64,000 nucleotides of DNA, taken from positions 1 through 64,000 of the IMG/VR virus record IMGVR_UViG_3300010885_059224. One strand, given 5' to 3'. Shown here one piece after another: positions 9,701 through 43,082 of the stretch. Position numbers and translations under genes: made by a program. Source of the stretch: a virus. Lineage: Duplodnaviria > Caudoviricetes. Position 1 is the first letter of the stretch. Every line of letters begins with the position of its first letter. The notes beneath the pieces were generated by a model that made no database searches, was not told the DNA's origin, and saw only the letters and a program-made list of their open reading frames with translations.

Positions 9701-10125
9701 AAATCCAGAGCCTAGACCAATTACTCACAGACACCGCAAAAGATGCCGCCAAGGGCACCTCCCCAGAAGATGCTGAGATTGATACAGATATAAATACACT
9801 CAAAGACTTCTATGGCAACGATACAAAAAAGATGATGGACGATGCTAGGAAGAAAGTGGGGTTATTTGATAAAGATAGTAAAGTCTCAAAAGAATATGGG
9901 GTAGACCTCACAAGCGATAGATTTGCGAGTGTTAGGAACAGTATCGAACAAAAGGCGGAAGACTACGAATCAAGCAGAGCAAAACTAACTGGCGCTGGAG
10001 ATGGTGATGCAGCAGCAAAAAGTAACCCCCAGGAAGATATGAATAAGAACCTATCCGCATTAACCGCGGAGCTGCAGGGTGGTACACTAGCAAAAGCGGT
10101 TGAACTCTTGGCCGGTAAAGTATAA
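6754..10125 (+). CDS. Tape measure protein
   Basis: 1123 aa, helix-prone Ala/Gly/Lys/Met-rich composition, directly after the G/GT-like pair. Confidence 0.65.
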   Translation: MPDEISSFPGYETYSQYRPYGNNYGNPILNALAFGAFGSNYAPRPGEGQSYYDASIERSRTRQFMGLQGSEFASNMAFKAAGINPNNSTLQMIGRNFASPDSGLARLLSPMVGGNPMAAAQGLYAGMQGANIMGAFGRPEGVTAKETSQMMRVLEKSFYKKEGIGDVANKMDAEYSNRLLNDPVLAEQSGIGTLSEDESNDAKSTGADRRKGVMALNKEADSLAENETRRGTKDFNKELSKQLSEHIEKVLIKSNKLTSEELKKARDSNGIVKPEVIRNLTRTELQRAGIEEKGLNYDAIKNTKLSEIADKVNEGRRSKDIRLDIISQARREYNSATTNEEKIAANKKIREQLTGLGIKEPGQFLGFGAAKKIDEKFLNEQEAKQKAVNYTEYKAAQYKQYQEAGGRYSGINFANTRGFNIEDFTSGFKSSSELGMLGGKSKDMVGKFDNFMQNSGGTLSAARSVFGNKSGSELVGKISDLMGTSGIDMSSKEGSSEVEQYLRSMKATARIAGVSMHAMLDTIDAAKELAKNNPRLSTLSAGAAADMTTKAFQTASAMSGVMTGTDIRKAGGQQGMVAASITEQQKLLSSDMGQGIVALQQMFAGDKKKSAAMKKALEQFPHGVRQDQLPELMESIMSQKGMEDVSRADLMNGMNNKFYQDEGNKNKDFAGKATDMMKDTIKSQLYTHLFDASDVDVNREGFAAAYEQAKEKNPELQEQDFKSTYVQQQIAEGYKKARAEDPNLSMDSYMGTFLRKDAYAASLFGQAPSTFKEGIARTIDPKYFEKVDKMREQDIATDKEMDEKYASRYAQPITQLMSTLASGKGFGEGEAEKLMGIFGDAPGSEKLKEGFQRAVVSAGQGDGDEALAGTAAGISEATGETITGEDIKNMATAGFREKDNKEALKRLDTLAGKKNRSATEEMEFKALQAAKKQKILDSGEAYKAAKEGVGQGHDGAAVTAASIMAQRDDAAVKEFDEDTGAKKIQSLDQLLTDTAKDAAKGTSPEDAEIDTDINTLKDFYGNDTKKMMDDARKKVGLFDKDSKVSKEYGVDLTSDRFASVRNSIEQKAEDYESSRAKLTGAGDGDAAAKSNPQEDMNKNLSALTAELQGGTLAKAVELLAGKV

Positions 10126-22632: not shown

Positions 22633-25600
22633 ATGTCAGCTCTAGAATACTTAAGTAATAATGCTTTAAACAGCTACCCATTTAAAGATGGTAGGGAGGC
22701 TAATCCTGATCTTCCTATCCCAAACGACGCATTTCTTGATGCACTGTTTATAACCAGCAACCACAGCATAAAGAGGGTATACATATCTAGAATAACGCAA
22801 GTTCAAGGAAATATAAGTATAGAATTATCTGAAGTAACATCTGGCGTCATTGGTACATTAGACTTTAAATTATCGGATGCAGTAAGTCATCTTAACAACC
22901 AAGATAAAAGTTTTATAGCTGGTTCTGGTACAGCTTGGGTTATAAAGCTGGTATTCGGTCCAGGGATATCATTTTTAAAAGGGAACAGAGCACCTGTAAC
23001 ATACACACCCCAGCAAACAGAGCTACTATCTTCTATATTACAAAACTATCCAAGAACAGTAACATCGCTTAAATTTCAATCTTACACACCGCAAGGAGCT
23101 ATATCAACTCAGGAGTTAACCGAAGTTCACAAGTACATAGCTGGAGACATTGTGCATATCGCAAATGGGGCGAATAATGAATTTAGTACAGGCACCGGAT
23201 CCGTGATGTACATAGACATTGACAGGGGTAAAGGAAAAGGGTTATGGGATCCTTGCAGCACAGGCCAGATAAAAAATATTTATTCAGTTAACGAGATAAT
23301 ACCAAGTAGCGTTGGAGAATTTTTTATTAACGCTGACGATTGTTATTCCGTAAAATTACTGTCGGCCAGTGAGCTTTCAGACCTAGGCAGCTCCACAAGC
23401 TCACCGACACATATAAAAACAGCAACAAACTATGCAAACTTTTCAACGCCCATAACACCAAAAGCAATACTTTCCGGTCTTATGGACTACGTTGGTCATT
23501 CTGCGGTCGCACAAAACTCAGTTAATGTAAGTTTCACAAGCCCAGAAATTGGGGATTTGATATCTGAAAACCCAGAAAACTACAGAATTATATTTAATGG
23601 TGGGTACATAGCAGAAAAAATAACAGGAGCTACAGGGGCGTATACACCAGGAGCAGTGTGGGCTATAACTGGTGTTTGGCCAGCCAACACCACTGGGGCT
23701 CCATTTTCAATCCAGCAAAAAAAAGTTTCCTTTAACGCCATAAGCGCGGCAGCCGGCGGCCATGGCTTTATGATGAGTAATAGCTGCTCTGCAAAATGCC
23801 CCCCAGAGAATATAAATGCCTTTGCAAAATATATGAACAGGGTAACAGATGGCGCCGCTGAACTTTATAAGATAGTTAATAACAATAGTCAAACATACGG
23901 TACCGGCAATATTGACGGAGCCCCTTTCTCTTCTGATAGCTTTAATGGAGTTATAAATAGCGCCTATTTTAAAGCGTATAATTTTTGTCAGGAGCCTGGG
24001 AGCTCAAGACCAATATCTTGCAACGCCAGCTTTAAAAAATATTTTCACGAGGGTAGAGATATAAAAATCACAAAAGGAAGGGATAATTATATATTTCAAA
24101 TAAAAAAAGTTTTATCGTCTACACGCATTATAATATCCCCCGCGATTCAAACTCCCGATATTTTTTCAGCGTTATGTGATATATTAAACACGCCTGGCAC
24201 ATATTATTCTTTTTCTGTGCTAGACTATGGTATAAAAAACTCATTAAACGACGCTATTATTAATAAGAATAATAAAGTTGCTACACAAAACACACCTTAT
24301 ATAGATTTGAATTACGGTACTGTGGAGGCGTACAACACAGCACGAGATTACGGAACTTTCATTACCTCCGTAATTGTTATCTATAACCCATCTGCAACTT
24401 CAATAACTTACAGTATCAGCGCAACGGTATTAGGCTTAGCTTCATTGGTTGGAACATCTGTAAAAATAAAAACAAGCAAGGGAGATATAAGTTATGGTGC
24501 CACCACAGGTACAATAGATTGCCAAGATTATAATATTTATGAATCAATATATTTTATACCTTGCTCTCCTTCTGAGCATAATTTAAGCGCTGGTGGGGTA
24601 CAATTCGAGGTGAATAATACAACACATACACCTCACGTACCAATACCCTATTACATTAACGGAGCCATAACAGCCCCATCAATTCCTCACTCCGAAAGCA
24701 GTACTGAATTAATTGCTGCCTTATGTGTATCTACCACGGTAGTCGAAGATTCTATTACCGCGACTCAAGGTAAAGCATTTGAATATAATATAACGCTTCT
24801 CGGCAACGCAACTGATGTTAAAGTTGCCGGTGATTTACCCAGCTGGATAACCCTCAGTCACACCACTACCCCTGGAGATCCTGTGATAAATAACTGGAAA
24901 TTATCTGCAACAAATCCTGACGGGATATCCAACAAAACGTATAATATTACTATATCTGGCTCCGGAGATACTCCAGTAGCTGCGATTAGTTTACATTTAC
25001 AATATATAGCAAAACCAGTGCTAAGTTACCCAGTGGACGATACCGCCGCTGGAAGGGCTCCATTTTCTTACGTTTTACATATATACCCCCCCGACGGTGG
25101 ACCCAAAATAAAAACTACCAGGCAATTCACTCAGGGTGCGCCATTAATGGCAATTCTTGCATCTAACAGCCCAACCAGTTACTCGATAACAGGATCTATC
25201 CCCAATGGACTAACTGTTTCAGGTCGCGGGCTGATAGGTAAAATTAGTCTTCCGGAGTCCACAACTTATCCTGCGGTTTATAATCTTACACTTTCCGCCA
25301 CCAATTCTGCAGGTACTTCCAAGACGGCTACAGTTGCATTAACTATACATGACGTAGGTATAACTACTCCTTGGGCGATAACAAATACATTATTTAATTA
25401 TTCTATTATAACCGCGGGTGACGTTATATCCCAGACGCTGATTTCAATAATTCCCGACTGGTTAACTTTTGATGGTGCAATCAATCTTTCTAGTACTTCT
25501 AAGCCAAAAGCTAATTTTTCTGGAACATATACTGGAGCGGACACAACAACTATTTCCGCGGTTGTCAGGCAAAATTTAATAAACGGAGGTTATAGACTTA

Positions 25601-28371
25601 TTGAATATAATATACCTGCCAAAGCATTGCCGTATATTACTTACCCAGTTACAGGCAGCACAATCGATGTATATTCTCCAGATTTCCAAGATTATTACGG
25701 TAATACCACTACGTTTACAACAACCAACCCATTTTTAATCGTTTTAGCTAAAAATAATCCAACAAATTTTAATGCTGTGGGACTGCCTACAGGACTCACA
25801 ATCAACCGCGATGGAAAAATAATAGGAAAGATTACATCTGCACCAGCAGGCATATACGTTGTCACAATCTATGCTATCAACGCACTAGGCAACTCTCAAA
25901 GTATAACAATAAACATAAAACTCTCTACCGCGGTAGAAGAAATACCTGCATTCCAGGGTGACTCGTTTTGTTATAAATTTCCAGCTTTGAATAGCTTAAT
26001 TAATGTTGAAGGCTGCTCATTCACAGTAACCGGCCGAGATGCAGCTAACCCAGCTCCAACTTGGCTTGGAGTAAGCAAAAGTATAAATTCTTCTTGTCAC
26101 CTTTATTACTCTGGGGGAGATCCTGGCTTATCTACTGGTACAACAAGTTTAATCTTATTAACGATAAACAATAACGATGTAATATCTCGGCGTTATTTTA
26201 ATGTAACCTACTCTCCTATACCTAACATCTTCGGCCCTCAAAGATCTAATATTTGGCAGGTGGCGTATACGAACTACAAAAATAATGTTTATACCACCGA
26301 ATTACCGTTAGCTAAAATAGAAGCCAGTCATTCTCCTACAAGTTATTCTGCTACGGGTTTGCCGTCTAGTTTGAGTATAGACTCAGCCGGTAATATTGTG
26401 GGCAGTTTAACCGTGCCGCCTGGTAACTACTATTTTACCATTTATGCAACCAATGAAGCTGGAAGAAGTGAAGGTGTTCAGTTCCAACTAAATGTTAGTT
26501 CTTCTCCCATTGAATATACAATATACAATAAAATAGAATTCAGTCTTTATGCGTTTGGACCAGCTAATTCTTCATATTCATATTCAGGAACGCTTCCACC
26601 AGGGCTAACTTTTTACCCAACAACTCGTCCAATATACGGAGATTTGATAGTGGGTTATGTAAATTTAACTAGCGATGCTTCATACCCAATAGACATAACT
26701 GTTCACAATGGAACCAGCAGCCTAAAATATTCATTTCTTTTAATTTATGATTCTAATGCATTAACTATTACTAATAGCGGAACGGTATATCCAATAGTAA
26801 TACCTGACTACGGTTTACGGAAATATACCAATAGCTCGCCATTACTCACCATAACCACAAATGTTCCAGCTACGTACTTTTACGGTAGTGGATTACCGCC
26901 AAGCCTAACTATTGATGCATCTACTGGGTGCATCATTGGTGGGCCTGTTACTACTGAGGGGTATTATACCGCCACGATCACGGCAAAAAATTCGAAATAT
27001 ACAGCCACTGCAGAATATTTTTTCAATGTGGAGAATAACGTAACCCGTTACCAGGCTGTGCACGGTGAGCCTGTATGTATACCGATAACAGCAGGTGTAT
27101 ACAACTATATTCTAAGTGCTGGTATTACCTCCGGATATTTACCTGGGGGACTCTCACTAAACGGACAGTCAGGTGTAGATTGTGGAATTTATGGTTATGT
27201 TTCACAGGGCGCCCCCTCAGGAACATCTGTAGTGACTATACGTAATAATTATATTGGTGGCTCCTTTAACCAAAATATTGCTATAAGTTACGTAGGAATA
27301 CCTACAATAACAAGTATTGAAGTTGGCTCTACCCCAACCACAAGCACTAGTAGAGTTAACAGTTTTAAATTTAAGCCGTCTAGATATAATTCATACGGAC
27401 CATACACTAAAGAAAACCCACTACTCACCGTAGTGGCCACAAATTCTCCAACGTCATTCATATATTCAGGATTACCAAGCAATTTAAGCATAGACAACTA
27501 CGGAAACGTTGTAGGCATCCCATCCATTGTTGAGACAGACGCGTTGTATTACGTATATGTTGTTGCGGTAAACTCCGTTGGTCGTTCGGGAGAGTATTTA
27601 TTTACGATCGATTTAACAAAAACAAGCCCAAGTATAAACTGGCAATCTCCAGGAGTATTGCTCTTTAGAGATACCGCGGAAAATGGAGATATATTCACCG
27701 CAACAGAAGGACATACCCCGCCGTATAGTGGAACTTTTGTATACTCAATTGCTCCTACAGATAGGTTTGATATAGGCTCGCAAAATTTAAGTATCACTTT
27801 TAATCCAACCAACAGAGCAGACTATTCCTCTCTAAGCAAAACGTTCTTCTATAACGTATCACCCGCCGGGTTTAGAATAGTGTGGAATCCTGTCATATCT
27901 ACGCTAACAAACACGGAATCTATAGACAGCAGGATTCTGAATGCTTATGTTGTTTTAAATACGGACCCATCGTATCACCCGCAGGGTAGCTTTGAGTATA
28001 CTATCTATGCATCTAGTGGAGCTACTGGCGTTTCGGCAAGTAATTATTCTCTCGATATGGGTAGCCCGGACATTCCAATTGATACAGTGGAGGGAGTGGT
28101 TATACGTCTTAAATTCACTCCAAACATATCCACACGGTGGGAGCAGCTCCCGCAGTATGACTACAGAAATGTATTTTTCAAGAAGGTGAACCAGCCATCA
28201 GACTGGACTCCAACACCTACACCTGAGCCTACACCTGAGCCTACACCTGAGCCTACACCTGAGCCTACCCCTGAACCTACACCTGAACCTACACCTGAAC
28301 CTGAACCTACACCTGAACCTACACCTGAACCTGAACCTACACCAGATCCTGATCCTGGTATGGGCGAATAG
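22633..28371 (+). CDS. Giant NxN..YP-family fibre/adhesin with repeated putative-Ig domains
   Basis: YLSNNALNSYP N-terminus; repeated (A/S)xGLPxxLxI(D/N)xxGxI(I/V)G units; C-terminal PTPE tract. Confidence 0.6.
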   Translation: MSALEYLSNNALNSYPFKDGREANPDLPIPNDAFLDALFITSNHSIKRVYISRITQVQGNISIELSEVTSGVIGTLDFKLSDAVSHLNNQDKSFIAGSGTAWVIKLVFGPGISFLKGNRAPVTYTPQQTELLSSILQNYPRTVTSLKFQSYTPQGAISTQELTEVHKYIAGDIVHIANGANNEFSTGTGSVMYIDIDRGKGKGLWDPCSTGQIKNIYSVNEIIPSSVGEFFINADDCYSVKLLSASELSDLGSSTSSPTHIKTATNYANFSTPITPKAILSGLMDYVGHSAVAQNSVNVSFTSPEIGDLISENPENYRIIFNGGYIAEKITGATGAYTPGAVWAITGVWPANTTGAPFSIQQKKVSFNAISAAAGGHGFMMSNSCSAKCPPENINAFAKYMNRVTDGAAELYKIVNNNSQTYGTGNIDGAPFSSDSFNGVINSAYFKAYNFCQEPGSSRPISCNASFKKYFHEGRDIKITKGRDNYIFQIKKVLSSTRIIISPAIQTPDIFSALCDILNTPGTYYSFSVLDYGIKNSLNDAIINKNNKVATQNTPYIDLNYGTVEAYNTARDYGTFITSVIVIYNPSATSITYSISATVLGLASLVGTSVKIKTSKGDISYGATTGTIDCQDYNIYESIYFIPCSPSEHNLSAGGVQFEVNNTTHTPHVPIPYYINGAITAPSIPHSESSTELIAALCVSTTVVEDSITATQGKAFEYNITLLGNATDVKVAGDLPSWITLSHTTTPGDPVINNWKLSATNPDGISNKTYNITISGSGDTPVAAISLHLQYIAKPVLSYPVDDTAAGRAPFSYVLHIYPPDGGPKIKTTRQFTQGAPLMAILASNSPTSYSITGSIPNGLTVSGRGLIGKISLPESTTYPAVYNLTLSATNSAGTSKTATVALTIHDVGITTPWAITNTLFNYSIITAGDVISQTLISIIPDWLTFDGAINLSSTSKPKANFSGTYTGADTTTISAVVRQNLINGGYRLIEYNIPAKALPYITYPVTGSTIDVYSPDFQDYYGNTTTFTTTNPFLIVLAKNNPTNFNAVGLPTGLTINRDGKIIGKITSAPAGIYVVTIYAINALGNSQSITINIKLSTAVEEIPAFQGDSFCYKFPALNSLINVEGCSFTVTGRDAANPAPTWLGVSKSINSSCHLYYSGGDPGLSTGTTSLILLTINNNDVISRRYFNVTYSPIPNIFGPQRSNIWQVAYTNYKNNVYTTELPLAKIEASHSPTSYSATGLPSSLSIDSAGNIVGSLTVPPGNYYFTIYATNEAGRSEGVQFQLNVSSSPIEYTIYNKIEFSLYAFGPANSSYSYSGTLPPGLTFYPTTRPIYGDLIVGYVNLTSDASYPIDITVHNGTSSLKYSFLLIYDSNALTITNSGTVYPIVIPDYGLRKYTNSSPLLTITTNVPATYFYGSGLPPSLTIDASTGCIIGGPVTTEGYYTATITAKNSKYTATAEYFFNVENNVTRYQAVHGEPVCIPITAGVYNYILSAGITSGYLPGGLSLNGQSGVDCGIYGYVSQGAPSGTSVVTIRNNYIGGSFNQNIAISYVGIPTITSIEVGSTPTTSTSRVNSFKFKPSRYNSYGPYTKENPLLTVVATNSPTSFIYSGLPSNLSIDNYGNVVGIPSIVETDALYYVYVVAVNSVGRSGEYLFTIDLTKTSPSINWQSPGVLLFRDTAENGDIFTATEGHTPPYSGTFVYSIAPTDRFDIGSQNLSITFNPTNRADYSSLSKTFFYNVSPAGFRIVWNPVISTLTNTESIDSRILNAYVVLNTDPSYHPQGSFEYTIYASSGATGVSASNYSLDMGSPDIPIDTVEGVVIRLKFTPNISTRWEQLPQYDYRNVFFKKVNQPSDWTPTPTPEPTPEPTPEPTPEPTPEPTPEPTPEPEPTPEPTPEPEPTPDPDPGMGE
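28216..28344 (+). repeat. Coding tandem repeat CCTACACCTGA(G/A) encoding PTPE
   Basis: About ten 12-bp units with two 6-bp CCTGAA insertions. Confidence 0.95.
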
Positions 28372-28429
28372 TTAATATTAACGAGTTAATTATGGTATAT
28401 TTTAATTAAATGTGTAAATATCAAATACT

Positions 28430-29869
28430 ATGGCCATCAGTACACTAAATTTTTTAAATAAGAACCAGTTTAGGAGTTACCCACTCAAGGCCGGCAGCTC
28501 TTTAACTTCTATAGATGGCAAAATTATAAGCGACGAATTATTTGTGGGAGCAAGCATCACGACCACGATCAATAGAAAAAACCTGTTCATTAAGCAGGTA
28601 TACATAAATGGTGCGGAAATAAGAGTTACCATAGCGGCAGTCCTACAAAATTCAAATTTTGAAACACTTGGAATATGCTATGGAACCATAGAGTCAGACT
28701 TTACGGTTTTAAAACTAACTGAAACTGCTATGTTCACGAGCGGTACGCTTATAGTAGGCACATTAGACTCTGTTATTTCTCACTCTGGAGTTTATACATT
28801 CGATAACACTAGCGCCAACTTCGAAGAGTCTGTCGTTTTTTATTATACGCCGCCCCCAGTAAAAAGTTTACACTGTAAAGGAATTTCCCTGCGAGGAAAT
28901 GTTAAGTTTGGGGTTTTGTCTAATCTTATAAAATCAAGAATAGAAGGCTCCAATAAAATTAATTTTGGTGTTATATCCTCCGCTAGTGTTAATAGTTTGG
29001 CGGATAAATCTTCGGTATTTAATAATTGCCCAACACCAATAATAAGATATATAGATGGAGCAATACCGTTCTATCAGGCAGCTGATTCTGTGGATGCTCA
29101 TAACTCCCCCAATTATCTTCCAGCTCTACAAGGTAATTTGTTTATGGTGGGCGTTTCCCCGCTATCATTTAAAAATCAACAAAATCTCAGTTCGTCACTG
29201 GGGCTAGTCGATATCGGTGGTATAAGCACAGAGGCAAAATCCATTACTAACGGCTCACCTATCACGCTTAATACTTTATGTAGTGCTAGAAACGCTGTAC
29301 TTCCGCCAGTGGCGCCTATGTATATAAATAATGGCTTACTGGACGGATCATCCCCAGCAGCAGATGGAATTTCAAGTTATTATACTAAATCTAGTTACTA
29401 CCCTAGTAATTTTTACTCTGTTGTAGACCCCGAGTTTACCTGGTGGCCTCAATTTTTTACTTATAGTAGTATTGCACCAGCCACCCCGATTACCGCGAAT
29501 ATTGGAGCTACTGGATTAATAGGCGTGGTGACACTCCCAGCAGAAACCGTGGTTAAAAAATACTCAATAGCTGTGGTTTTTGTGAATACTGGAGTAGCCA
29601 CGTTAGACTTAACTTTGGTACTTACTAGAAAAGCTCAAGATGGCACCACGACCACATCCAAGCCGGAGGGTTTTCATAACATCATAGTTAATCCAAACAG
29701 CTCCATAATCGTGAGAACAGTTAACGACAGCAACTATCCAAGACATGAAATAACTGGATCTGGCTATCCAATACCGATGGAGATTGCCACAGGTGATACA
29801 TTTTATGTATATTTTAATAATGTATCAGGAGGGGTCTCAACCCTACAACCATACCTATACTATAGATAA
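28430..29869 (+). CDS. NxN..YP-family structural protein 3
   Basis: FLNKNQFRSYP N-terminus; CPTPIIRYIDGAIP. Confidence 0.5.
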   Translation: MAISTLNFLNKNQFRSYPLKAGSSLTSIDGKIISDELFVGASITTTINRKNLFIKQVYINGAEIRVTIAAVLQNSNFETLGICYGTIESDFTVLKLTETAMFTSGTLIVGTLDSVISHSGVYTFDNTSANFEESVVFYYTPPPVKSLHCKGISLRGNVKFGVLSNLIKSRIEGSNKINFGVISSASVNSLADKSSVFNNCPTPIIRYIDGAIPFYQAADSVDAHNSPNYLPALQGNLFMVGVSPLSFKNQQNLSSSLGLVDIGGISTEAKSITNGSPITLNTLCSARNAVLPPVAPMYINNGLLDGSSPAADGISSYYTKSSYYPSNFYSVVDPEFTWWPQFFTYSSIAPATPITANIGATGLIGVVTLPAETVVKKYSIAVVFVNTGVATLDLTLVLTRKAQDGTTTTSKPEGFHNIIVNPNSSIIVRTVNDSNYPRHEITGSGYPIPMEIATGDTFYVYFNNVSGGVSTLQPYLYYR

Positions 29870-29871
29870 CA

Positions 29872-30639
29872 ATGTCATCATATACCGTACTATCTTGGCA
29901 GAATGAAAATGGGCTAACCAATTACCCATTTTCTAGCCCTATGCAAATAAATGATTTGGTTGTAGATGCTTCATTTATTCAGTTCGATAATTATACACCA
30001 ATATTGAACAGCATTCTTGTAGGTAGAGACTACATGGAGTTTAGAATAACTTTTGATAACGGTGTAGTTTTGGCTAAGTATCTTAAAACATCGTACGACT
30101 CCGGGCTTAGGAATCTTAGATTTTATGACTATGGTGGAAATAGGTATCTTGGTTGTTTGACAATTGGTGAAGGTGCTGTAACTGCATGGACTAGCTATGT
30201 TGGAGAAAACTTGATTATTTCACTTCCATTTGTTGCGACAACAGTGCGAAGCATACCATTGAACGACGCGGTGTATAAGCTAGATAATTCCTATGGTACC
30301 TTGGTTTTAGGTGCAAACCAAGATATAGCGGATAGCTTTATACAGGTAGGTAATCTTGTGTACCAAAAATCTGCCGGAGGTAATACTGTTTTTTATAACA
30401 CTTCGGTATCCCCGGCAGCGATTACATTTAACGCTGTAGGTAATAGCTCTATATCCGCCAGTAATAAAACCCACCCTTTAAAACAGATCAATCTTACTAA
30501 ACCTATAGATAACAATATTACGTTAAACGGAAATGACATTGTTAAATTTAAGTCTATAAACAATCAAAATTTATCTATATATGTTACCGGCAGCGGAATA
30601 TCAAATTCTAGCCCATTATTAACAACATTAGCCTTATAA
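29872..30639 (+). CDS. NxN..YP-family structural protein 4
   Basis: WQNENGLTNYP N-terminus; LKQINLTKP. Confidence 0.5.
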   Translation: MSSYTVLSWQNENGLTNYPFSSPMQINDLVVDASFIQFDNYTPILNSILVGRDYMEFRITFDNGVVLAKYLKTSYDSGLRNLRFYDYGGNRYLGCLTIGEGAVTAWTSYVGENLIISLPFVATTVRSIPLNDAVYKLDNSYGTLVLGANQDIADSFIQVGNLVYQKSAGGNTVFYNTSVSPAAITFNAVGNSSISASNKTHPLKQINLTKPIDNNITLNGNDIVKFKSINNQNLSIYVTGSGISNSSPLLTTLAL

Positions 30640-30640
30640 T

Positions 30641-31798
30641 ATGGAAATAGTACAATGGCTTAACGAAAACGCCCTGAGGGCTTACCCATTAATAGAGGGT
30701 AAGACTGTAGAGCAAATACCTGATGGAGTCATACTAGACTTATTACTTAATATTTCCGAAGGCACAGATCCCGCAACAGCTAAATTAACCGCACTAGTTG
30801 TTAATTCTACAGATATAACTGTTATTTTTACAGATAACTTTTTTGATTATAATTATGCTGAGCATGGAGTCTCTGGCATTGATAATATTACATTTCCAAT
30901 ATACATAAGAAATGCTTCAGGCAGCCTAGTAGTACTTGGAGAGGACTTGAAAAAAATAACAAGAGGCACTGTATTTAATGTAGATGTCCCTGTTGAACCC
31001 GCCACAGTATACCAATTTAGTGGTGCATGGAATGGTGTTACTAGCATATCGGGAAATCCCAATTACCTTAGCGGTGGGTTCCAAATAGCCAACATTATGA
31101 ACTATTCAGGACAACCATCAGTAGGGTACAATACCGTAAGTGTTGGCCTTGGTAATCCTGGGTGGGGTCCCCAAATACAAGCAAACCCACATAGTTATGA
31201 AATTGTATTTAATGGTGGATTAACCGCAGATATCGCTACAGCTTCAGGTAGTCCGTATCCAGGAGGCCGCTGGACTTTTACCGGTGAATGGCCAGCTAAC
31301 TCAAATGGCGCCCCACTAACCATAAGATCAAAAAATACAGATTCATTTGCACCATTTCTCCCGCTACAGTCGGTTGACGGTGTTGGCTTGACTGGAGATA
31401 TCGAATTTGTTCCTGGTTATAACTACGCGATAAATTTTAATAACAATGCGATAAATATGACAGTTGGCTACCGATTAGGCCTAAAAATGGATTGCACAAC
31501 CAAATTTCTACAGGATAAATACCTGGATTGTGGGGATATCGTATCTTATATTAACGGAGTACCTCCGGATGACTCTGGAGTGTTTAAATTCACTGCAGGT
31601 AGCAATATTTATTTATTCGATGGTGATTCGGTACAAGAGCCCATACAGGATACAAACCTAGCCCCACCGTTGAGTGTTTATACAGATATATCAGGGGACA
31701 AACAAACAGGATTAAATAATAACACTATATTTGTAGGGTTGACATTCCTAGAGTCTGATTTATGCTCTCCTATACAACTACTACCCACAAATAACTAA
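30641..31798 (+). CDS. NxN..YP-family structural protein 5
   Basis: WLNENALRAYP N-terminus; CGDIVSYINGVPPD. Confidence 0.5.
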   Translation: MEIVQWLNENALRAYPLIEGKTVEQIPDGVILDLLLNISEGTDPATAKLTALVVNSTDITVIFTDNFFDYNYAEHGVSGIDNITFPIYIRNASGSLVVLGEDLKKITRGTVFNVDVPVEPATVYQFSGAWNGVTSISGNPNYLSGGFQIANIMNYSGQPSVGYNTVSVGLGNPGWGPQIQANPHSYEIVFNGGLTADIATASGSPYPGGRWTFTGEWPANSNGAPLTIRSKNTDSFAPFLPLQSVDGVGLTGDIEFVPGYNYAINFNNNAINMTVGYRLGLKMDCTTKFLQDKYLDCGDIVSYINGVPPDDSGVFKFTAGSNIYLFDGDSVQEPIQDTNLAPPLSVYTDISGDKQTGLNNNTIFVGLTFLESDLCSPIQLLPTNN

Positions 31799-32870: not shown

Positions 32871-33164
32871 ATGGCAAGTTATATCGCTGTCTATTTTTTA
32901 ACTATGAAGATAGCCAAATATTTACGAAGGATAGATTGGACGGCAGATAGTAGGTTATATAGCTTATCCACCAAGTTAGATGGACATAGCTATATAATCG
33001 TTACTGCAACAAAGTCAGATTTCTCAGAACCGGAAACTTTGATTTTCGGTGCAGATGAGAGAGGGAACCCAATAGATTTTGAGGAATTACCAGGAACAGG
33101 AGTCGGAAGCATTAATCATGACGCAGCAATAATAAAGGCGGGATATACTCCGTTTTACAACTAA
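32871..33164 (+). CDS. Hypothetical protein (97 aa; alternative start 32904)
   Basis: Downstream of a TATAAT promoter; ETLIFGADERG..FEELPG. Confidence 0.6.
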   Translation: MASYIAVYFLTMKIAKYLRRIDWTADSRLYSLSTKLDGHSYIIVTATKSDFSEPETLIFGADERGNPIDFEELPGTGVGSINHDAAIIKAGYTPFYN

Positions 33165-33178
33165 CCCACACAAAATAC

Positions 33179-33466
33179 ATGAGCCACGAAATAGTAGACA
33201 AGTTGATACAGGAAAACACAGATCTCAAAAATAACTTAGAGGTACATGCTAACATGGCGGTACAGCTTACAGTAACAAGAAATGAGCTAATGACTCAACT
33301 TGAGAAGCTTAATGAAAAGATTAAGGTACTGGAGAGTCATCCCAAGATTGTAAAAATTAATAAGAATGATGATAGAACATTCGTAAGCATCGACGACTTG
33401 TTTGAGATCCGTAGATCAGATAAAGCAGAAATAAAGAGACTCAGCCAACTTTTAAATGGGTGTTAA
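33179..33466 (+). CDS. Hypothetical coiled-coil protein (95 aa)
   Basis: Heptad-like L/E/K pattern; C/A-rich leader. Confidence 0.6.
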   Translation: MSHEIVDKLIQENTDLKNNLEVHANMAVQLTVTRNELMTQLEKLNEKIKVLESHPKIVKINKNDDRTFVSIDDLFEIRRSDKAEIKRLSQLLNGC

Positions 33467-33467
33467 C

Positions 33468-33503
33468 CCCCCCATTTATAATTATGGTTTTTTGCGGTAT
33501 AAT
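33468..33503 (+). promoter_or_regulatory. Promoter CCCCCCA-N21-GGTATAAT (copy 2), upstream of the ncRNA array
   Basis: TATAAT at 33498-33503 directly ahead of the first structured module. Confidence 0.6.
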
Positions 33504-33504
33504 A

Positions 33505-33624
33505 AAATGTAACCACGATTTGCTGGGCTCTATTAATTTAGGGTATAGCGGCAAATCAATTGGTTGACAACCCCACACACCCAACAACGTGCATCTTCTT
33601 CACAGAAGATAGCATGTTACATTT
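33505..33624 (+). ncRNA. Unassigned two-hairpin structured RNA
   Basis: GATTTGCTG/CGGCAAATC and ATCTTCT/AGAAGAT stems joined by a C/A-rich linker. Confidence 0.45.
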
Positions 33625-33656
33625 AGCTTTTTGGGGTGCACAGATCCTCATATTTT

Positions 33657-33757
33657 GAAACACTGCCTGAATAGGGCGCAGGGAGAACCTGCGACTACAC
33701 ATACCCGGTTATCTGTTTTCATAGGGACTATGTGGGTTGCAACACAGGCAGTGTTTC
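33657..33757 (+). ncRNA. Unassigned three-way-junction RNA (copy A)
   Basis: Perfect 13-bp closing stem GAAACACTGCCTG/CAGGCAGTGTTTC, CGCAGG-GAGAA-CCTGCG hairpin, long second arm. Confidence 0.65.
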
Positions 33758-33759
33758 TA

Positions 33760-33828
33760 ACTCGTCTATGCGAGTATAAATAGCCAACTAGGCATAGAGC
33801 GTCCCGGCTAAAATAGCTGGGGGATTGG
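33760..33828 (+). ncRNA. Pistol self-cleaving ribozyme
   Basis: P1 ACTCG/CGAGT; loop TCTATG pseudoknots with CATAGA; AAA linker; TAG/CTA; GCG; P3 TCCCGGCTA/TAGCTGGGG; P2 CCAA/TTGG; predicted cut G33823/A33824. Confidence 0.9.
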
Positions 33829-33992
33829 GCGCAAGAATGGAACGTATCGTAATTAAGTTACGCTCCCCTAATAGGTCAATATGGTATAACCCATATTTGG
33901 TGACAACCTCATAGGTCTCTGCAAAGACAATGAACAAATCACCCGCCTCGCTAATGACAATTGCAGAAGTCTTGGCAGGAACGCGCCCCGAA
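33824..33992 (+). ncRNA. Unassigned multibranch RNA starting at the pistol cleavage site
   Basis: GGGCGC/GCGCCC closing stem; CGTAAT/GTTACG, AATATGG/CCATATT and TCTGCAA/TTGCAGA stems. Confidence 0.55.
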
Positions 33993-33995
33993 TTT

Positions 33996-34112
33996 AAATA
34001 AGCTTGTGAGTAGAGCGCCCGGAGATCTGGCGACACGGTTAGTAGATTGATTTTTAACCACACGCTGGTGGTATTTAATCTGCTAAATGGTGATGATCAC
34101 ACAAACTTATTT
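33996..34112 (+). ncRNA. Unassigned three-way-junction RNA (copy B)
   Basis: 12/13-bp closing stem AAATAAGCTTGTG/CACAAACTTATTT; shares a 26-nt core with copy A; TTAGTAGATTG/TAATCTGCTAA arm. Confidence 0.65.
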
Positions 34113-34164
34113 TTAACTGTCCCCTCCCCTAAACCAAAACACCAACCATAACCATAAAACAAAC

Positions 34165-34947
34165 ATGGCTAAAAACGTAGAAGTAATAGATTGGGCTTCA
34201 CCTGCCCGTAAGGCAAAAAGAGACAATGATCTTTATATCAATAGGGATCTCAAGAAGCTCATGACATATCGTGAGTATAGAAATCAACCAGTTAATGTTT
34301 TATCATTACCTGCAGAGAAGTGGCTGTGGGAGAGCCAGTTGATTCAGAACTTCCCTAATAATAAGATTAACTTTCTAGGCACAGAGTCAAATCCTGTAGT
34401 TTATAAGAAAGCGCTAGAAGTAGCTACCACGATTAATGGTAAAAACGTAAAAACAGAACTACTACCCAACAAATGGGAAGAAGTGGTGGTTAGAGATTTT
34501 AACTCTAGGATGTTTAATCCCACAGATGCTGGTTTTGACATCATTTACGGGGACTTCATGGGTACATTTAATAGAGGCATTATAGGCTATATAGAAGAAC
34601 TATTGAGTGATACCGAAATGTTAAAACCTCTTGGTAATATTATTTTTACATTCATGCTTGCTCGTGGATGTAAATATACCAGAGAGGAAACAATAAAGAT
34701 CGGGGAGAAATCCGCTTATAGACATCAGCTCTATGTTGATGACGATAAGATGTGGCTACGGAACACCAAAAACAACACCTCAAATCTGGTACATACATAT
34801 GCTCTGGGCATTATGGAAACAGTTGTGTTAATCGCCAAGAAGTTTGGTAAGGTATTAATACCCGCTAAACCTCACGTTTATTATAGCCCAGGAGCTAACG
34901 GAGCAGAACTTCCAGAAGGCAGCTTTTGCTTTACTAGGCTTAAATAA
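34165..34947 (+). CDS. Class I SAM-dependent methyltransferase-like protein
   Basis: Rossmann MTase strand order: NVLSLPAE (motif I-like), FLGTESNP (II), FDIIYGDFMG (IV), LKPLGNIIFTF (VI); motif I is degenerate. Confidence 0.5.
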   Translation: MAKNVEVIDWASPARKAKRDNDLYINRDLKKLMTYREYRNQPVNVLSLPAEKWLWESQLIQNFPNNKINFLGTESNPVVYKKALEVATTINGKNVKTELLPNKWEEVVVRDFNSRMFNPTDAGFDIIYGDFMGTFNRGIIGYIEELLSDTEMLKPLGNIIFTFMLARGCKYTREETIKIGEKSAYRHQLYVDDDKMWLRNTKNNTSNLVHTYALGIMETVVLIAKKFGKVLIPAKPHVYYSPGANGAELPEGSFCFTRLK

Positions 34948-34969
34948 TTTAATACACTTATAAAAATTT

Positions 34970-35403
34970 GGGGGCGTTACTGGCACTCGACTCCAGAAAT
35001 AGATAACACACCTACATGCGGAGGATCTCAGTTGGCCTCCTTAATCATCTGGGAAAAAACTAAAAGCAGCCTCTAACGAGACGCTTGCTCCTAGCCTCGC
35101 CGAGGCAGACGCCATTCTTGCAAAGTTTGGCTATGCTGACGCTGAGCTCCTCGCTGCCTAACCGCAGCGGAGAAATCCGCTAGTTGCAATAACGGTACAA
35201 GGACGCCCGATGCCATGTACTTCAAACGGGTACCTCGATTATATTGTGAGGGTATAATTCATATATGCACCAATTGCATTAAGTTGGGAATCTGAACTAC
35301 GCATTTACACATTATTGTAGTTCTTATATTAAATGTGAAAAGCATGTACACGGTTGTTTGAAATATCTGGAACACAGGGGTTCGAATCCCCTCGCCTCCA
35401 CCA
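34970..35403 (+). ncRNA. ssrA: tmRNA, encoded tag AASNETLAPSLAEADAILAKFGYADAELLAA
   Basis: GGGGGCG..CTCGAC 5' end; GGGGTTCGAATCCCCTCGCCTCCACCA 3' end with G3:U pair; CATGC/GCATG helix; tag ORF 35066-35161 ending LAA-stop. Confidence 0.95.
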
Positions 35404-35407
35404 ATTT

Positions 35408-35465
35408 GAATGTCGAACCCCGCTCCCCTCTTGTCCAATACCATGGACTGAGGGGAGCAACATTT
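35408..35465 (+). ncRNA. GC-rich hairpin element after tmRNA
   Basis: GCTCCCCTC/GAGGGGAGC and GTCCA/TGGAC stems; could also act as a terminator or processing site. Confidence 0.45.
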
Positions 35466-35572
35466 TATCCGAGAAATCCCATTGCGATAAGCTGGCAGCA
35501 CATTAGAGCTGATCCAGTGTGTCAGAAGAACTCGTAGACCGAAGACGTTTTGGGCGAATAGGTCAATTAATT

Positions 35573-35757
35573 TTCCTCCTAGGGTGAGGTCGCTCCCCTT
35601 GCTCATAGCTTGACGAATACTGCACGACTACAGTTATCGTTAAAGCGAAAGAGACCGCAGTTCCCTGCACGTGTAATCCCTCTATTATATCAGGCATGAG
35701 TAATAAGAAACATGACTAGTCATCATGGGGGAGAGAAGCTAGCTGCGGGTGGAGGAA
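35573..35757 (+). ncRNA. Rod-shaped 185-nt RNA (6S-sized)
   Basis: Nested stems TTCCTCC/GGAGGAA, CTCCCC/GGGGAG, TTGCTCAT/ATGAGTAA, GCTTGA/TCAGGC, TGCACG/CGTGTA. Confidence 0.55.
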
Positions 35758-35766
35758 CACTTTTTA

Positions 35767-35925
35767 TCCCAGTAGTTGTATATAAAACCCACACTGAGAA
35801 GCACGTCAGCCGCCGTGTGTATACGTGGAAATCCTGAAGATAAACGATACATCCTCTCATAGGCATACAGGTGATGAATGTGAGAACAAAGGAAATCAAC
35901 CATCTAGGAGCTACAACTACTGGGA
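35767..35925 (+). ncRNA. Unassigned 159-nt RNA with a perfect 14-bp closing stem
   Basis: TCCCAGTAGTTGTA/TACAACTACTGGGA; inner CACGT/ACGTG and TCTCATA/TGTGAGA. Confidence 0.55.
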
Positions 35926-36092
35926 AAATTTGGTAATGTATTTTATCGGTTAAATCATTAATGTTACAGCCGTCTGTGGCCGCGAGATATCATATCTTTC
36001 CCGCCCAAAAAAATAACAGATAGAATAATTCAAAGGGGTCCAAACCTGTAGATTTATTCTAGCACTATAAAGTAACAGCCATTAACCATTTT
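35926..36092 (+). ncRNA. Unassigned branched RNA
   Basis: TGGTAATG/CATTAACCA, TGTTAC/GTAACA, GTCTGT/ACAGAT and AGAATAA/TTATTCT stems. Confidence 0.45.
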
Positions 36093-36120
36093 CTAAATCT
36101 GACACACTCAGGCTTGGGAG

Positions 36121-36152
36121 CACTGGTCCGGCAGTGACTAACACAATCCGGA
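36121..36152 (+). ncRNA. Compact H-type pseudoknot
   Basis: S1 CACTG/CAGTG, 1-nt L1, S2 TCCGG/CCGGA, A/C-rich L3 ACTAACACAAT. Confidence 0.45.
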
Positions 36153-36196
36153 AAATTTTATTTGCCACATAACCTATATAGGTCTATTGTGATTCT

Positions 36197-36277
36197 AGCT
36201 CAGGACAACCAAAAACCCTCTGGTATTAGGCGTATGCTCCAATGGCACGTGGAGTATTTTAAGTCCTGTCCTGAGCT
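36197..36277 (+). ncRNA. Unassigned three-way-junction RNA
   Basis: Perfect 11-bp closing stem AGCTCAGGACA/TGTCCTGAGCT; ACCA/TGGT and ATGCTCCA/TGGAGTAT hairpins. Confidence 0.55.
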
Positions 36278-36305
36278 CTAATTTTTAGCTATCAACATAA
36301 AGCAC

Positions 36306-36527
36306 ATGACACACAAAAAAACCACAGTAGAAATTCCACAATGGTGGGAAGCAACAGCAGACAACTATAATGATTTCTGGAATATGCAAAGGGCGTACAG
36401 CCTGGCAGGATTAAACACAAGCTATAAAGAGATAGCCCAATACAACACTCCCCCATATTTGGCTATATTTTGGGTAGGTAAACGACCTGACCAGGTTATT
36501 GAAAAATATTCCGAGAAATCCGTTTGA
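36306..36527 (+). CDS. Hypothetical protein (73 aa)
   Basis: ATG ORF with C/A-rich leader. Confidence 0.55.
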   Translation: MTHKKTTVEIPQWWEATADNYNDFWNMQRAYSLAGLNTSYKEIAQYNTPPYLAIFWVGKRPDQVIEKYSEKSV

Positions 36528-38099: not shown

Positions 38100-38174
38100 T
38101 CCTGATTAGCTCAATGGTAGAGCAGTGAGCTGTTAACTCGCATGTTGTTGGTTCGAGTCCAGCATCAGGAGCCA
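38100..38174 (+). tRNA. tRNA-Asn (GTT)
   Basis: Cloverleaf, anticodon loop CTGTTAA, T-loop TTCGAGT, encoded CCA. Confidence 0.95.
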
Positions 38175-38262
38175 GATTTGAGATGTTTGGGTCGCTCCCA
38201 ACTGAAGGGCAAACGCAGGATCAGGCCAACGAGATACAAATAAACCCTGCACAATTTTAAAT

Positions 38263-38333
38263 TACCCTGTGGTGTAACGGTAACACTTTAGTTTTTGGCA
38301 CTAACATTCATGGTTCAAATCCATGCGGGGTAG
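38263..38333 (+). tRNA. tRNA-Gln (TTG)
   Basis: TACCCTG/CGGGGTA acceptor with U1:A72, loop TTTTGGC; no encoded CCA. Confidence 0.9.
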
Positions 38334-38350
38334 TATATAATAATTTATCT

Positions 38351-38424
38351 GGAGTTGTAGCTCAATTGGTCAGAGCACCGCCCTGTCACGGCGGGGGTTG
38401 CGAGTTCGAGCCTCGTCAACTCCG
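38351..38424 (+). tRNA. tRNA-Asp (GTC)
   Basis: GGAGTTG/CAACTCC acceptor, loop CTGTCAC, G73; no encoded CCA. Confidence 0.95.
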
Positions 38425-38438
38425 GATTACATTTTAAT

Positions 38439-38513
38439 GCACGATTAGCTTAGCGGTAGAGCAGGTCCTTTACACGGACAAGGTCGGGGGTTCGATTCCC
38501 TCATCGTGCACCA
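38439..38513 (+). tRNA. tRNA-Val (TAC)
   Basis: GCACGAT/ATCGTGC acceptor, loop TTTACAC, encoded CCA. Confidence 0.95.
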
Positions 38514-38514
38514 C

Positions 38515-38587
<73 letters not shown>

Positions 38588-38597
38588 CAAATTTAAT

Positions 38598-38683
38598 GGG
38601 TAGATACCGAAGCGGTCAAACGGGGTAGACTGTAAATCTACTGGCATTAGCCTTCGAAGGTTCGAGTCCTTCTCTGCCCACCA
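38598..38683 (+). tRNA. tRNA-Tyr (GTA)
   Basis: Loop CTGTAAA, long variable arm, encoded CCA. Confidence 0.95.
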
Positions 38684-42242: not shown

Positions 42243-42284
42243 ACCTCCCACGCCTCTCACTGAAGCGCACCAGGGAGGTTTTTT
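42243..42284 (+). terminator. Probable rho-independent terminator
   Basis: ACCTCCC/GGGAGGT stem plus T-tract; unusually long loop. Confidence 0.5.
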
Positions 42285-43010: not shown

Positions 43011-43082
43011 CGCAGAGTAGAGAAACGGTATCTCGCAACGCTCATAACGTTGAGACAGCAGGTTCAACTCCTGCCTCTGCCA
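43011..43082 (+). tRNA. tRNA-Met (CAT), initiator-like
   Basis: C1xC72 mismatch, A11:U24, loop CTCATAA, T-loop TTCAACT; no encoded CCA. Confidence 0.85.

Follow-up and report, generated by a model that had tools for sequence, protein, structure and literature searches.

A pistol ribozyme with a predicted GA cleavage step lies between conserved structured RNAs in a freshwater tailed phage

A pistol self-cleaving ribozyme occupies positions 33760-33828 of the plus strand in a 64-kb stretch of viral DNA (hereafter called the window). We place a probability of roughly 65% on the reading that this is a functional ribozyme within a non-coding phage RNA of ~550-600 nucleotides, where it would separate the RNAs that flank it. 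The family is already known and, judged from its sequence, the locus is a new member of it. In its available text, a 2019 review describes most self-cleaving ribozymes encoded in genomes as having an unknown biological role, with ‘processing polycistronic transcripts’ offered as no more than a suggestion (PMC6765202). The locus described here offers a concrete and testable case, in that the ribozyme lies between two conserved structured RNAs and its slot is apparently filled by two ribozyme classes in related viruses. Because this conserved cutting slot sits between undescribed RNAs and beside a phage tmRNA, the question of what such a ribozyme does becomes directly testable.

The window is the leading 64 kb of an IMG/VR virus record of 73.8 kb whose completeness is estimated at 38%. 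Its coding content, with a terminase large subunit, a DnaB-like helicase, an SbcC-like ATPase and large proteins resembling tail fibres, identifies its source as a tailed phage. Freshwater metagenomes are the best holders of window DNA. A search of both strands of the 64-kb window with all 4227 Rfam families matched 33760-33828 (plus strand) to the complete Pistol model (RF02679, model positions 1-68 of 68) with 61.5 bits against a gathering score of 34.5 (E = 9.2e-9). This is the sole Rfam match at E<=10 within 33440-34180. The ribozyme is built from the following elements.

33760-33764 and 33771-33775, plus strand: P1, ACTCG with CGAGT, 5 of 5 pairs
33765-33770 and 33793-33798, plus strand: pseudoknot, TCTATG with CATAGA, 6 of 6 pairs, joining the P1 loop to the strand between P2 and P3
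33778-33780, plus strand: AAA
33784-33787 and 33825-33828, plus strand: P2, CCAA with TTGG
33788, plus strand: C, the position-29 equivalent (usually U) and expected partner of the +1 residue A33824 in the Rfam alignment
33791-33801, plus strand: active-site segment, mapped through the Rfam consensus line
33791, and 33792 with 33800, plus strand: purine 32 (G33791) and the G33-C41 pair (G33792-C33800), Rfam consensus mapping
33799 and 33801, plus strand: G40, the general base (G33799), and G42 (G33801), Rfam consensus mapping
33799-33801, plus strand: GCG
33802-33809 and 33815-33822, plus strand: P3, 8 pairs in the Rfam alignment and 9 counting A33810-T33814
33823-33824, plus strand: junction with the predicted scissile step G33823/A33824, the two junction columns of the Rfam alignment

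An earlier note on this DNA had listed the pistol elements, and a check of the sequence found each of them at the coordinates it gave. The P3 helix that it described as 9 bp is present, with a length better given as 8-9 bp (8 in the Rfam alignment). Its assignment to the pistol class is borne out by the full-model match at 61.5 bits, its placement of the product 5' end at A33824 agrees with the cleavage position predicted by the Rfam alignment, and the residue it had singled out for mutation, G33799, turns out to equal the general-base G40. The 3' junction between P3 and P2 is exactly two nucleotides long (G33823 and A33824), as the pistol rule requires. All residues named as catalytic or structural in the available text of PMC6154101 are present in the window pistol, where the roles of purine 32, G33-C41, G40 and G42 follow that source and the portions of PMC6795133 at hand.

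The Rfam covariance model does not score the pseudoknot, and its perfect complementarity therefore provides independent support for the assignment. Among 41 aligned phage pistols, including that of the window, P1, the pseudoknot and the G33-C41 pair are 98.8% paired, and both sides have changed in 8 of these 12 pairs. None of 500 shuffles reached the observed pairing, and slid controls were 24-50% paired. On sequence and structure together, the identity of 33760-33828 as a pistol is almost certain.

The earlier note had drawn attention to a GA cleavage dinucleotide. In its available text, Harris 2015 (PMC4604425) places pistol cleavage at ‘a modestly conserved GU dinucleotide’, describes the identity of the junction nucleotides as one that ‘varies somewhat’ while their number is strictly conserved, and reports products with 2',3'-cyclic phosphate and 5'-OH ends. 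Because junction identity varies in that account, the GA step falls inside known natural variation. The +1 U is held by a U-U wobble with the conserved U29, an interaction seen in both pistol crystal structures according to the text available of Kostenbader and York 2019 (PMC6795133). At this contact, the window pistol carries C33788 opposite A33824.

Phage pistols were collected from IMG/VR with two core patterns, yielding at least 223 pattern matches and, after requiring at least 4 of 5 P1 pairs and at least 5 of 6 pseudoknot pairs, at least 190 cores. Among the matches listed, 121 unique sequences were parsed through P3, the junction and P2, with 69 of 190 cores left out as duplicates or parser failures. 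This sample is biased by the fixed letters in the search patterns. Since a MAFFT alignment lost the register of the 3' strand, the junction statistics derive from a simple parser script, which probably mis-reads some rare AG, AA, TA and TT junctions. The combination of U29 with GU accounts for 98 of the 121 parsed pistols among the matches listed, followed by U29 with AU (6), C29 with GA (5), and U29 with GA, C29 with GC and U29 with GC (2 each); the other 6 combine various residues at position 29 with AG, AA, UA or UU junctions, several of them probably mis-parsed.

Among the same listed matches, C29 occurs with none of 105 U(+1) residues and with 7 of 16 other +1 bases (5 A, 2 C), an association with a Fisher p of 1.8e-7 when kinship among the 121 parsed pistols is ignored. 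The absence of C29 opposite U(+1) is explained by the known U29-U(+1) pair (PMC6795133, available text). The C29/GA combination comes from three lineages among the matches listed, namely the window clade, L006 and L143, and L025, which lies within the window clade, carries U29 with A(+1), a Watson-Crick pair. Because C29 and A(+1) change together, the GA step is best read as one of two coupled changes at a known contact. This natural covariation of position 29 and the +1 base fits the contact seen in the crystal structures. The GA dinucleotide is thus present as the earlier note had it, although less remarkable than was implied, since it lies within known variation and is coupled to the change of U29 to C. 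The pistol literature searched yielded no mutational data on U29 or on the +1 residue.

A pistol fold might also have been kept as a structural part of a larger RNA while C29 and A(+1) left it catalytically weak or dead. Two positions that are usually U do differ, and U29 is called conserved, and is said to hold the +1 base, in the available text of PMC6795133. However, every residue named as catalytic is intact, C29/A(+1) recurs in the window clade, L006 and L143, L025 has U29/A(+1), and the identity of the junction varies among pistols (Harris 2015, as far as its text was available). The apparent presence of a different ribozyme class in the same slot, described below, suggests moreover that cutting is what matters. 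We consider an inactive fold very improbable. An active ribozyme is preferred, and the window pistol very likely self-cleaves at G|A as judged from these sequence features; the C-A contact could lower the rate of catalysis.

The pistol lies in a 698-nucleotide gap (33467-34164) between plus-strand ORFs. Short ORFs overlapping this gap on either strand have no Pfam or PHROGs match, and the gap in relatives differs by indels of 13, 3 and 2 nucleotides (alignment A1), from which we conclude that 33467-34164 is non-coding. The gap and the region downstream of it hold the following features.

33475-33503, plus strand: promoter-like site, TTTATA, 17 nucleotides, TATAAT (consensus scan, 10 of 12, best in the region)
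33510-33633 (approximate), plus strand: upstream RNA module, a long hairpin (AACCA.GATTTGC with GCAAATC..TTGGT) and a second hairpin ending GTTACATTTAG
33634-33647, plus strand: 3' remnant GGGTGCACAGATCC of a ~125-nucleotide element (alignments A1 and A5)
33659-33755, plus strand: long branched hairpin closed by AACACTGCCTG and CAGGCAGTGTT (alignment A1)
33824-33994, plus strand: ~170-nucleotide structured RNA with a five-way junction (folds, RNAalifold)
34005-34102, plus strand: trailing element with GTGAGTAGAG, a covarying hairpin, ACAC, GCTGG and the palindromic GGTGATGATCACAC (alignment A5)
34165-34947, plus strand: 260-amino-acid ORF
34970-35403, plus strand: tmRNA (Rfam, 76.8 bits)
38100-38683, plus strand: six tRNA genes (Asn, Gln, Asp, Val, Ala, Tyr)
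43011-43082, plus strand: separate tRNA-Met

This locus was found in five other viral contigs, designated G001 (locus L007), G002 (L025), G003 (L094/L085), G004 and G005 (L245 and L246), which together with the window make six viral contigs from four lineages. A neighbouring protein of G003 is 96% identical to that of the window, and G004 and G005 are identical to each other across the locus. The pistols of G001, G002 and G003 score 59.7-61.3 bits with the Rfam model and keep both GA and the GGGCGC that follows, and P3 has compensatory changes in relatives, from TCCCGGCT/AGCTGGGG to TCCTGGAC/GTCCGGGG. Only four lineages carry the locus, and the covariation counts are accordingly small. GenBank phages gave no match to it by megablast or blastn. 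A scan of viral sequences for the downstream RNA returned 16 loci, of which 4 belong to the clade already known and 12 are chance matches to GC-rich coding regions, and the loci returned from metagenomes (10) and genomes (3) were all chance hits in coding sequence. Two further viral scans returned 5 stretches each, with L245 and L246 as the only additions.

The structured RNAs on both sides of the pistol are shared by these relatives, and none of the flanking RNAs matches any Rfam family. The upstream module at 33510-33633 is conserved in the window, L094, L007 and L025 (alignment A1), and by reading of the sequence L007 keeps its first hairpin with a different sequence, such that the upstream hairpins are conserved more in structure than in sequence. 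The ~125-nucleotide element that follows (GATCTGTGT...ACACAGATCC) is complete in L094 (~2540-2670), L007 (~2010-2135) and L245 (minus strand, ~9750-9850), is deleted in the window and L025, and has no Rfam match. It is closed by GATCTGTGT with ACACAGATC; its core, CCGCTAATTA..AAAGGTCCACG..TGATATTGT, is conserved and its inner hairpin variable. The long branched hairpin at 33659-33755 is found only in the window and L094. It was considered as a degenerate twister and rejected, as it forms a continuous stem and has no Rfam match at E<=10.

Downstream of the predicted cut, the ~170-nucleotide RNA has a closing helix of GGGCGC (33827-33832) with GCGCCC (33983-33988) around four hairpins. Its minimum free energy has a z-score of -3.24, and the window, L094, L007 and L025 share this architecture when each is folded independently. 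RNAalifold with five sequences yields 34 pairs, of which 10 show compensatory change. A loop-loop pairing of CTGCAA (33919-33924) with TTGCAG (33961-33966), both strands of which are invariant, is possible; several unpaired stretches, among them TGACAAYCTCA, GAACAAAYCA and AGGAACGCGCC, are likewise invariant. These observations point to a new structured RNA family that Rfam does not hold. The predicted cut falls three nucleotides before the closing helix. P2 and this helix overlap by two nucleotides (33827-33828), and competition between them was considered as a timer for product release, an idea dropped as a conserved feature because the overlap is absent in the lineage with a twister-like element. 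In the trailing element, the hairpin arms differ by lineage and stay complementary (GCCCG/TGGCG, GTAGG/CCTAC, ATGG/CCAT and ATGGG/CCCAT). The trailing element may act as an RNA or as a DNA site bound by protein.

The promoter-like site at 33475-33503 probably starts a non-coding transcript near 33510. With 11 sites against 9.6 expected, the consensus scan does not exceed chance overall; the -10 box GGTATAATA is invariant in all four sequences of alignment A1 and is also present in L245. Reading of the sequences shows that the tmRNA of G001 and G002 is preceded by TTGTAA or TTGAAA, 17 nucleotides and TATTAT, and the window equivalent is TTAATA, 18 nucleotides and TATTAT. Since the tmRNA appears to have a promoter-like site of its own, it is probably a separate transcript, and the ‘polycistronic’ unit therefore probably spans only ~550-600 nucleotides, from ~33510 to ~34070-34100. 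The description of the pistol as lying inside an ncRNA array holds for its immediate flanks, but the tmRNA lies 1.1 kb and the tRNAs 4.3 kb further on. The suggestion in the earlier note that the ribozyme processes an ncRNA transcript is strengthened by the conserved structured flanks and by the apparent exchange for a twister-like element, with the reservation that the unit is probably this short.

A search of sequencing runs yielded 19 runs, 6 of them RNA, and four lake metatranscriptome runs were compared as Logan contigs. Over 33000-36500, their contigs cover 33000-33181, 34853-35401 (mainly tmRNA) and 35489-35693. No contig of the four runs covers 33182-34852, a gap that is uninformative on the pistol, and the contigs carry no end information. 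The window tmRNA is matched without differing letters by contigs of the four lake runs. Its tag is unusually long, with 31 residues ending in LLAA, and directly after the tmRNA (~35410-35470) comes a hairpin that is conserved and covaries, and then a T run.

Between the non-coding unit and the tmRNA lies the plus-strand 260-amino-acid ORF (34165-34947), which lacks any Pfam or PHROG match and is missing from L007 and L025. Its ESM Atlas model is similar to class I SAM-dependent methyltransferases, among them a tRNA methyltransferase family (TM 0.57-0.74), and the protein may on this model be methyltransferase-like, which we treat as a lead only. The pistol could then process the 5' leader of the mRNA for this protein. 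Most phage pistols seem to process mRNA leaders, the ORF is on the same strand 340 nucleotides downstream, and L094 and L245 have a homologue. However, L007 and L025 keep the pistol and the downstream RNA without such an ORF, and their unit runs into the tmRNA, which in G001 and G002 starts ~390 nucleotides after the pistol with no ORF between it and the non-coding unit. By reading of the sequence, the downstream RNA of L007 and L025 is followed by a long hairpin and then a T run, and the intervening 340 nucleotides are conserved as structure, not as a leader. Leader processing is therefore judged unlikely, and separation of non-coding RNAs remains the preferred reading.

A survey of downstream contexts with a rough script places the window in a minority. 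Of the 58 unique phage pistols from the first of the two pattern scans that could be evaluated, 21 have a Shine-Dalgarno sequence and an ORF of at least 40 amino acids within the next 150 nucleotides, 28 have an ORF without a clear Shine-Dalgarno sequence, and 9, including the window, L007 and L085, have neither. Adjacency to tRNA or tmRNA was also considered as a general pistol trait and set aside, because ARAGORN found one tRNA within 1.5 kb across 78 unique pistol loci, a weak test given that the program missed the Rfam-found tmRNAs of L007 and L085.

The two relatives that lack a pistol provide further evidence on the function of the slot. G004 (182 kb, 93% complete) and G005 share the promoter box, upstream element, downstream RNA, trailing element and ORF homologue with the window, and no pistol was found anywhere in either record. 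The slot instead holds a 103-nucleotide element, ~10 nucleotides after the upstream element and 4 nucleotides before the downstream closing helix. In L245 it spans 9627-9729 on the minus strand, with a predicted cut between U9725 and A9724. In a search of 1.3 kb with all Rfam families, this element matches the full twister-P1 model (RF03160) with 29.6 bits (E = 5.6e-4), far below the gathering score of 67.2. A search of the whole G004 and G005 records with RF03160 gave no hit at E<=0.1, probably because an element with long insertions escaped the first-pass filter.

The type-P1 twister comprises P1, P2 and P4 stems, two pseudoknots that join L4 with L1 and L2, and a conserved A located 3' of the scissile bond (PMC5408937). 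The element in L245 has this architecture of stems, pseudoknots and conserved A, with P1 (UUUG/CAAA), P2 (UGCU/AGCA), 2 of 3 pairs of P4, and UAA. Relative to the twister-P1 consensus, the L2 dinucleotide is AC rather than GC and its L4 partner GU rather than GC, while the L4 triplet is CUC rather than CCC and its L1 partner GAG rather than GGG. Neither pseudoknot is scored by the model, and both are kept through these double changes in L2/L4 and L4/L1. The CUC/GAG variant recurs in other viral contigs, where a scan gave 35 stretches, 34 script matches and 26 unique sequences, 8 of which pass a strict P1/P2 test with P1 and P2 that differ and stay complementary. Five of six variant loci match RF03160 with 32-48 bits (E of 1e-7 to 3e-3), none of them at the gathering score, and L263 has no listed match; even compact members of the variant reach only 43-48 bits. 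Taken together, the slot element of G004 and G005 is probably a twister.

Elsewhere, seven loci (L250, L251, L252, L254, L266, L272 and L279) carry CUC/GAG twister-like elements followed after ~10-15 nucleotides by a shared sequence with GAGTTCGAACTC. This sequence looks like a tRNA T-arm and may represent another phage arrangement in which a ribozyme is next to a structured RNA. In L248, a twister-like element lies beside a RAGATH-12 match (70.8 bits against a threshold of 75).

The proposed course of events begins with plus-strand transcription from ~33510. Once 33828 has emerged, the pistol would fold through P1, the pseudoknot, P2 and P3, with C33788 matched to A(+1) in a C-A contact in place of the usual U-U. 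G33799 would then activate the 2'-OH of G33823, and the chain would break between G33823 and A33824. The upstream RNA would keep the ribozyme and end at G33823 with a 2',3'-cyclic phosphate, and the ~170-nucleotide five-way-junction RNA would be released with a 5'-OH at A33824 and three extra nucleotides (AUU) before its closing helix. The purpose would be the physical separation of the upstream and downstream RNA modules, and we lean slightly towards separating or maturing the flanking RNAs as the role of this pistol. Ends of this kind slow RNases that depend on a 5'-monophosphate or a 3'-OH, and the products might thus be handled poorly by host 5'- and 3'-end-dependent RNases. The pistol would stay on the upstream product and a type-P1 twister on the downstream product. 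Exact end-trimming therefore would not be a role common to the two; they would share only the separation of the modules, along with the non-standard ends that it leaves.

The 2',3'-cyclic phosphate and 5'-OH ends are also substrates for RtcB-type ligases, and cleavage might serve to make chemical ends for a later step, such as RtcB-type ligation or circularisation, or recognition by a phage or host protein. Pistol products do carry these ends (PMC4604425, available text), and the methyltransferase-like gene and tmRNA are next door. Searches of four related records for RtcB (PF01139) and RNA ligase (PF09414) gave 0 of 4 each, weak evidence against this idea as the records are only 13-53% complete. 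In addition, an Rfam search found no second ribozyme downstream that would make a matching end. We consider a role in supplying chemical ends improbable, and favour separation of the two RNAs.

A more specific and more tentative proposal is that the pistol and the twister-like element form an interchangeable cutting cassette, which frees the ~170-nucleotide RNA from the upstream RNA and lies in a phage RNA island that also holds the tmRNA, the tRNAs and the methyltransferase-like gene. If this is true, the pistol would be among the first with a natural substrate and purpose that can be named, and its C29/A(+1) pair would indicate that other bases can re-form the +1 contact.

Compared with known systems, the window pistol shares with other RF02679 members (Weinberg 2015, Harris 2015) P1, the 6-bp pseudoknot, AAA, P2, P3, the 2-nucleotide junction, the equivalents of the active-site residues and the typical association with phages. 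It differs in having GA rather than GU and C rather than U at position 29, and what follows it is a structured non-coding RNA instead of a ribosome-binding site with its ORF. The type-P1 twister (RF03160) enters the comparison through the twister-like element, which occupies the exact pistol slot of G004 and G005 between the same flanks. Its fold is unrelated, the G004/G005 match is sub-threshold (29.6 versus 67.2 bits), and it would cleave near its own 5' end such that the ribozyme stays on the downstream RNA.

The closest functional precedent found is that of theta (minimal HDV-like) ribozymes by phage tRNAs, as described in the available text of PMC10879173. There too, a small self-cleaving ribozyme abuts a phage structured RNA and is proposed to cut it free without host RNases. 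However, theta ribozymes belong to another class, come from gut phages rather than a freshwater phage, and are proposed to act on tRNA 3' trailers, whereas the pistol cuts at its own 3' end and would define a 5' end.

Two further observations concern other parts of the window. A match to abiF RNA at 42244-42279 (plus strand) is barely at the Rfam threshold (37.3 bits versus 37). At 22633-31798 (plus strand), four consecutive large ORFs (1912, 479, 255 and 385 amino acids) share the N-terminal motif N..L..YP[FL] and are probably tail-fibre or baseplate paralogues, and the 1912-amino-acid protein ends in a long PEPT-type repeat.
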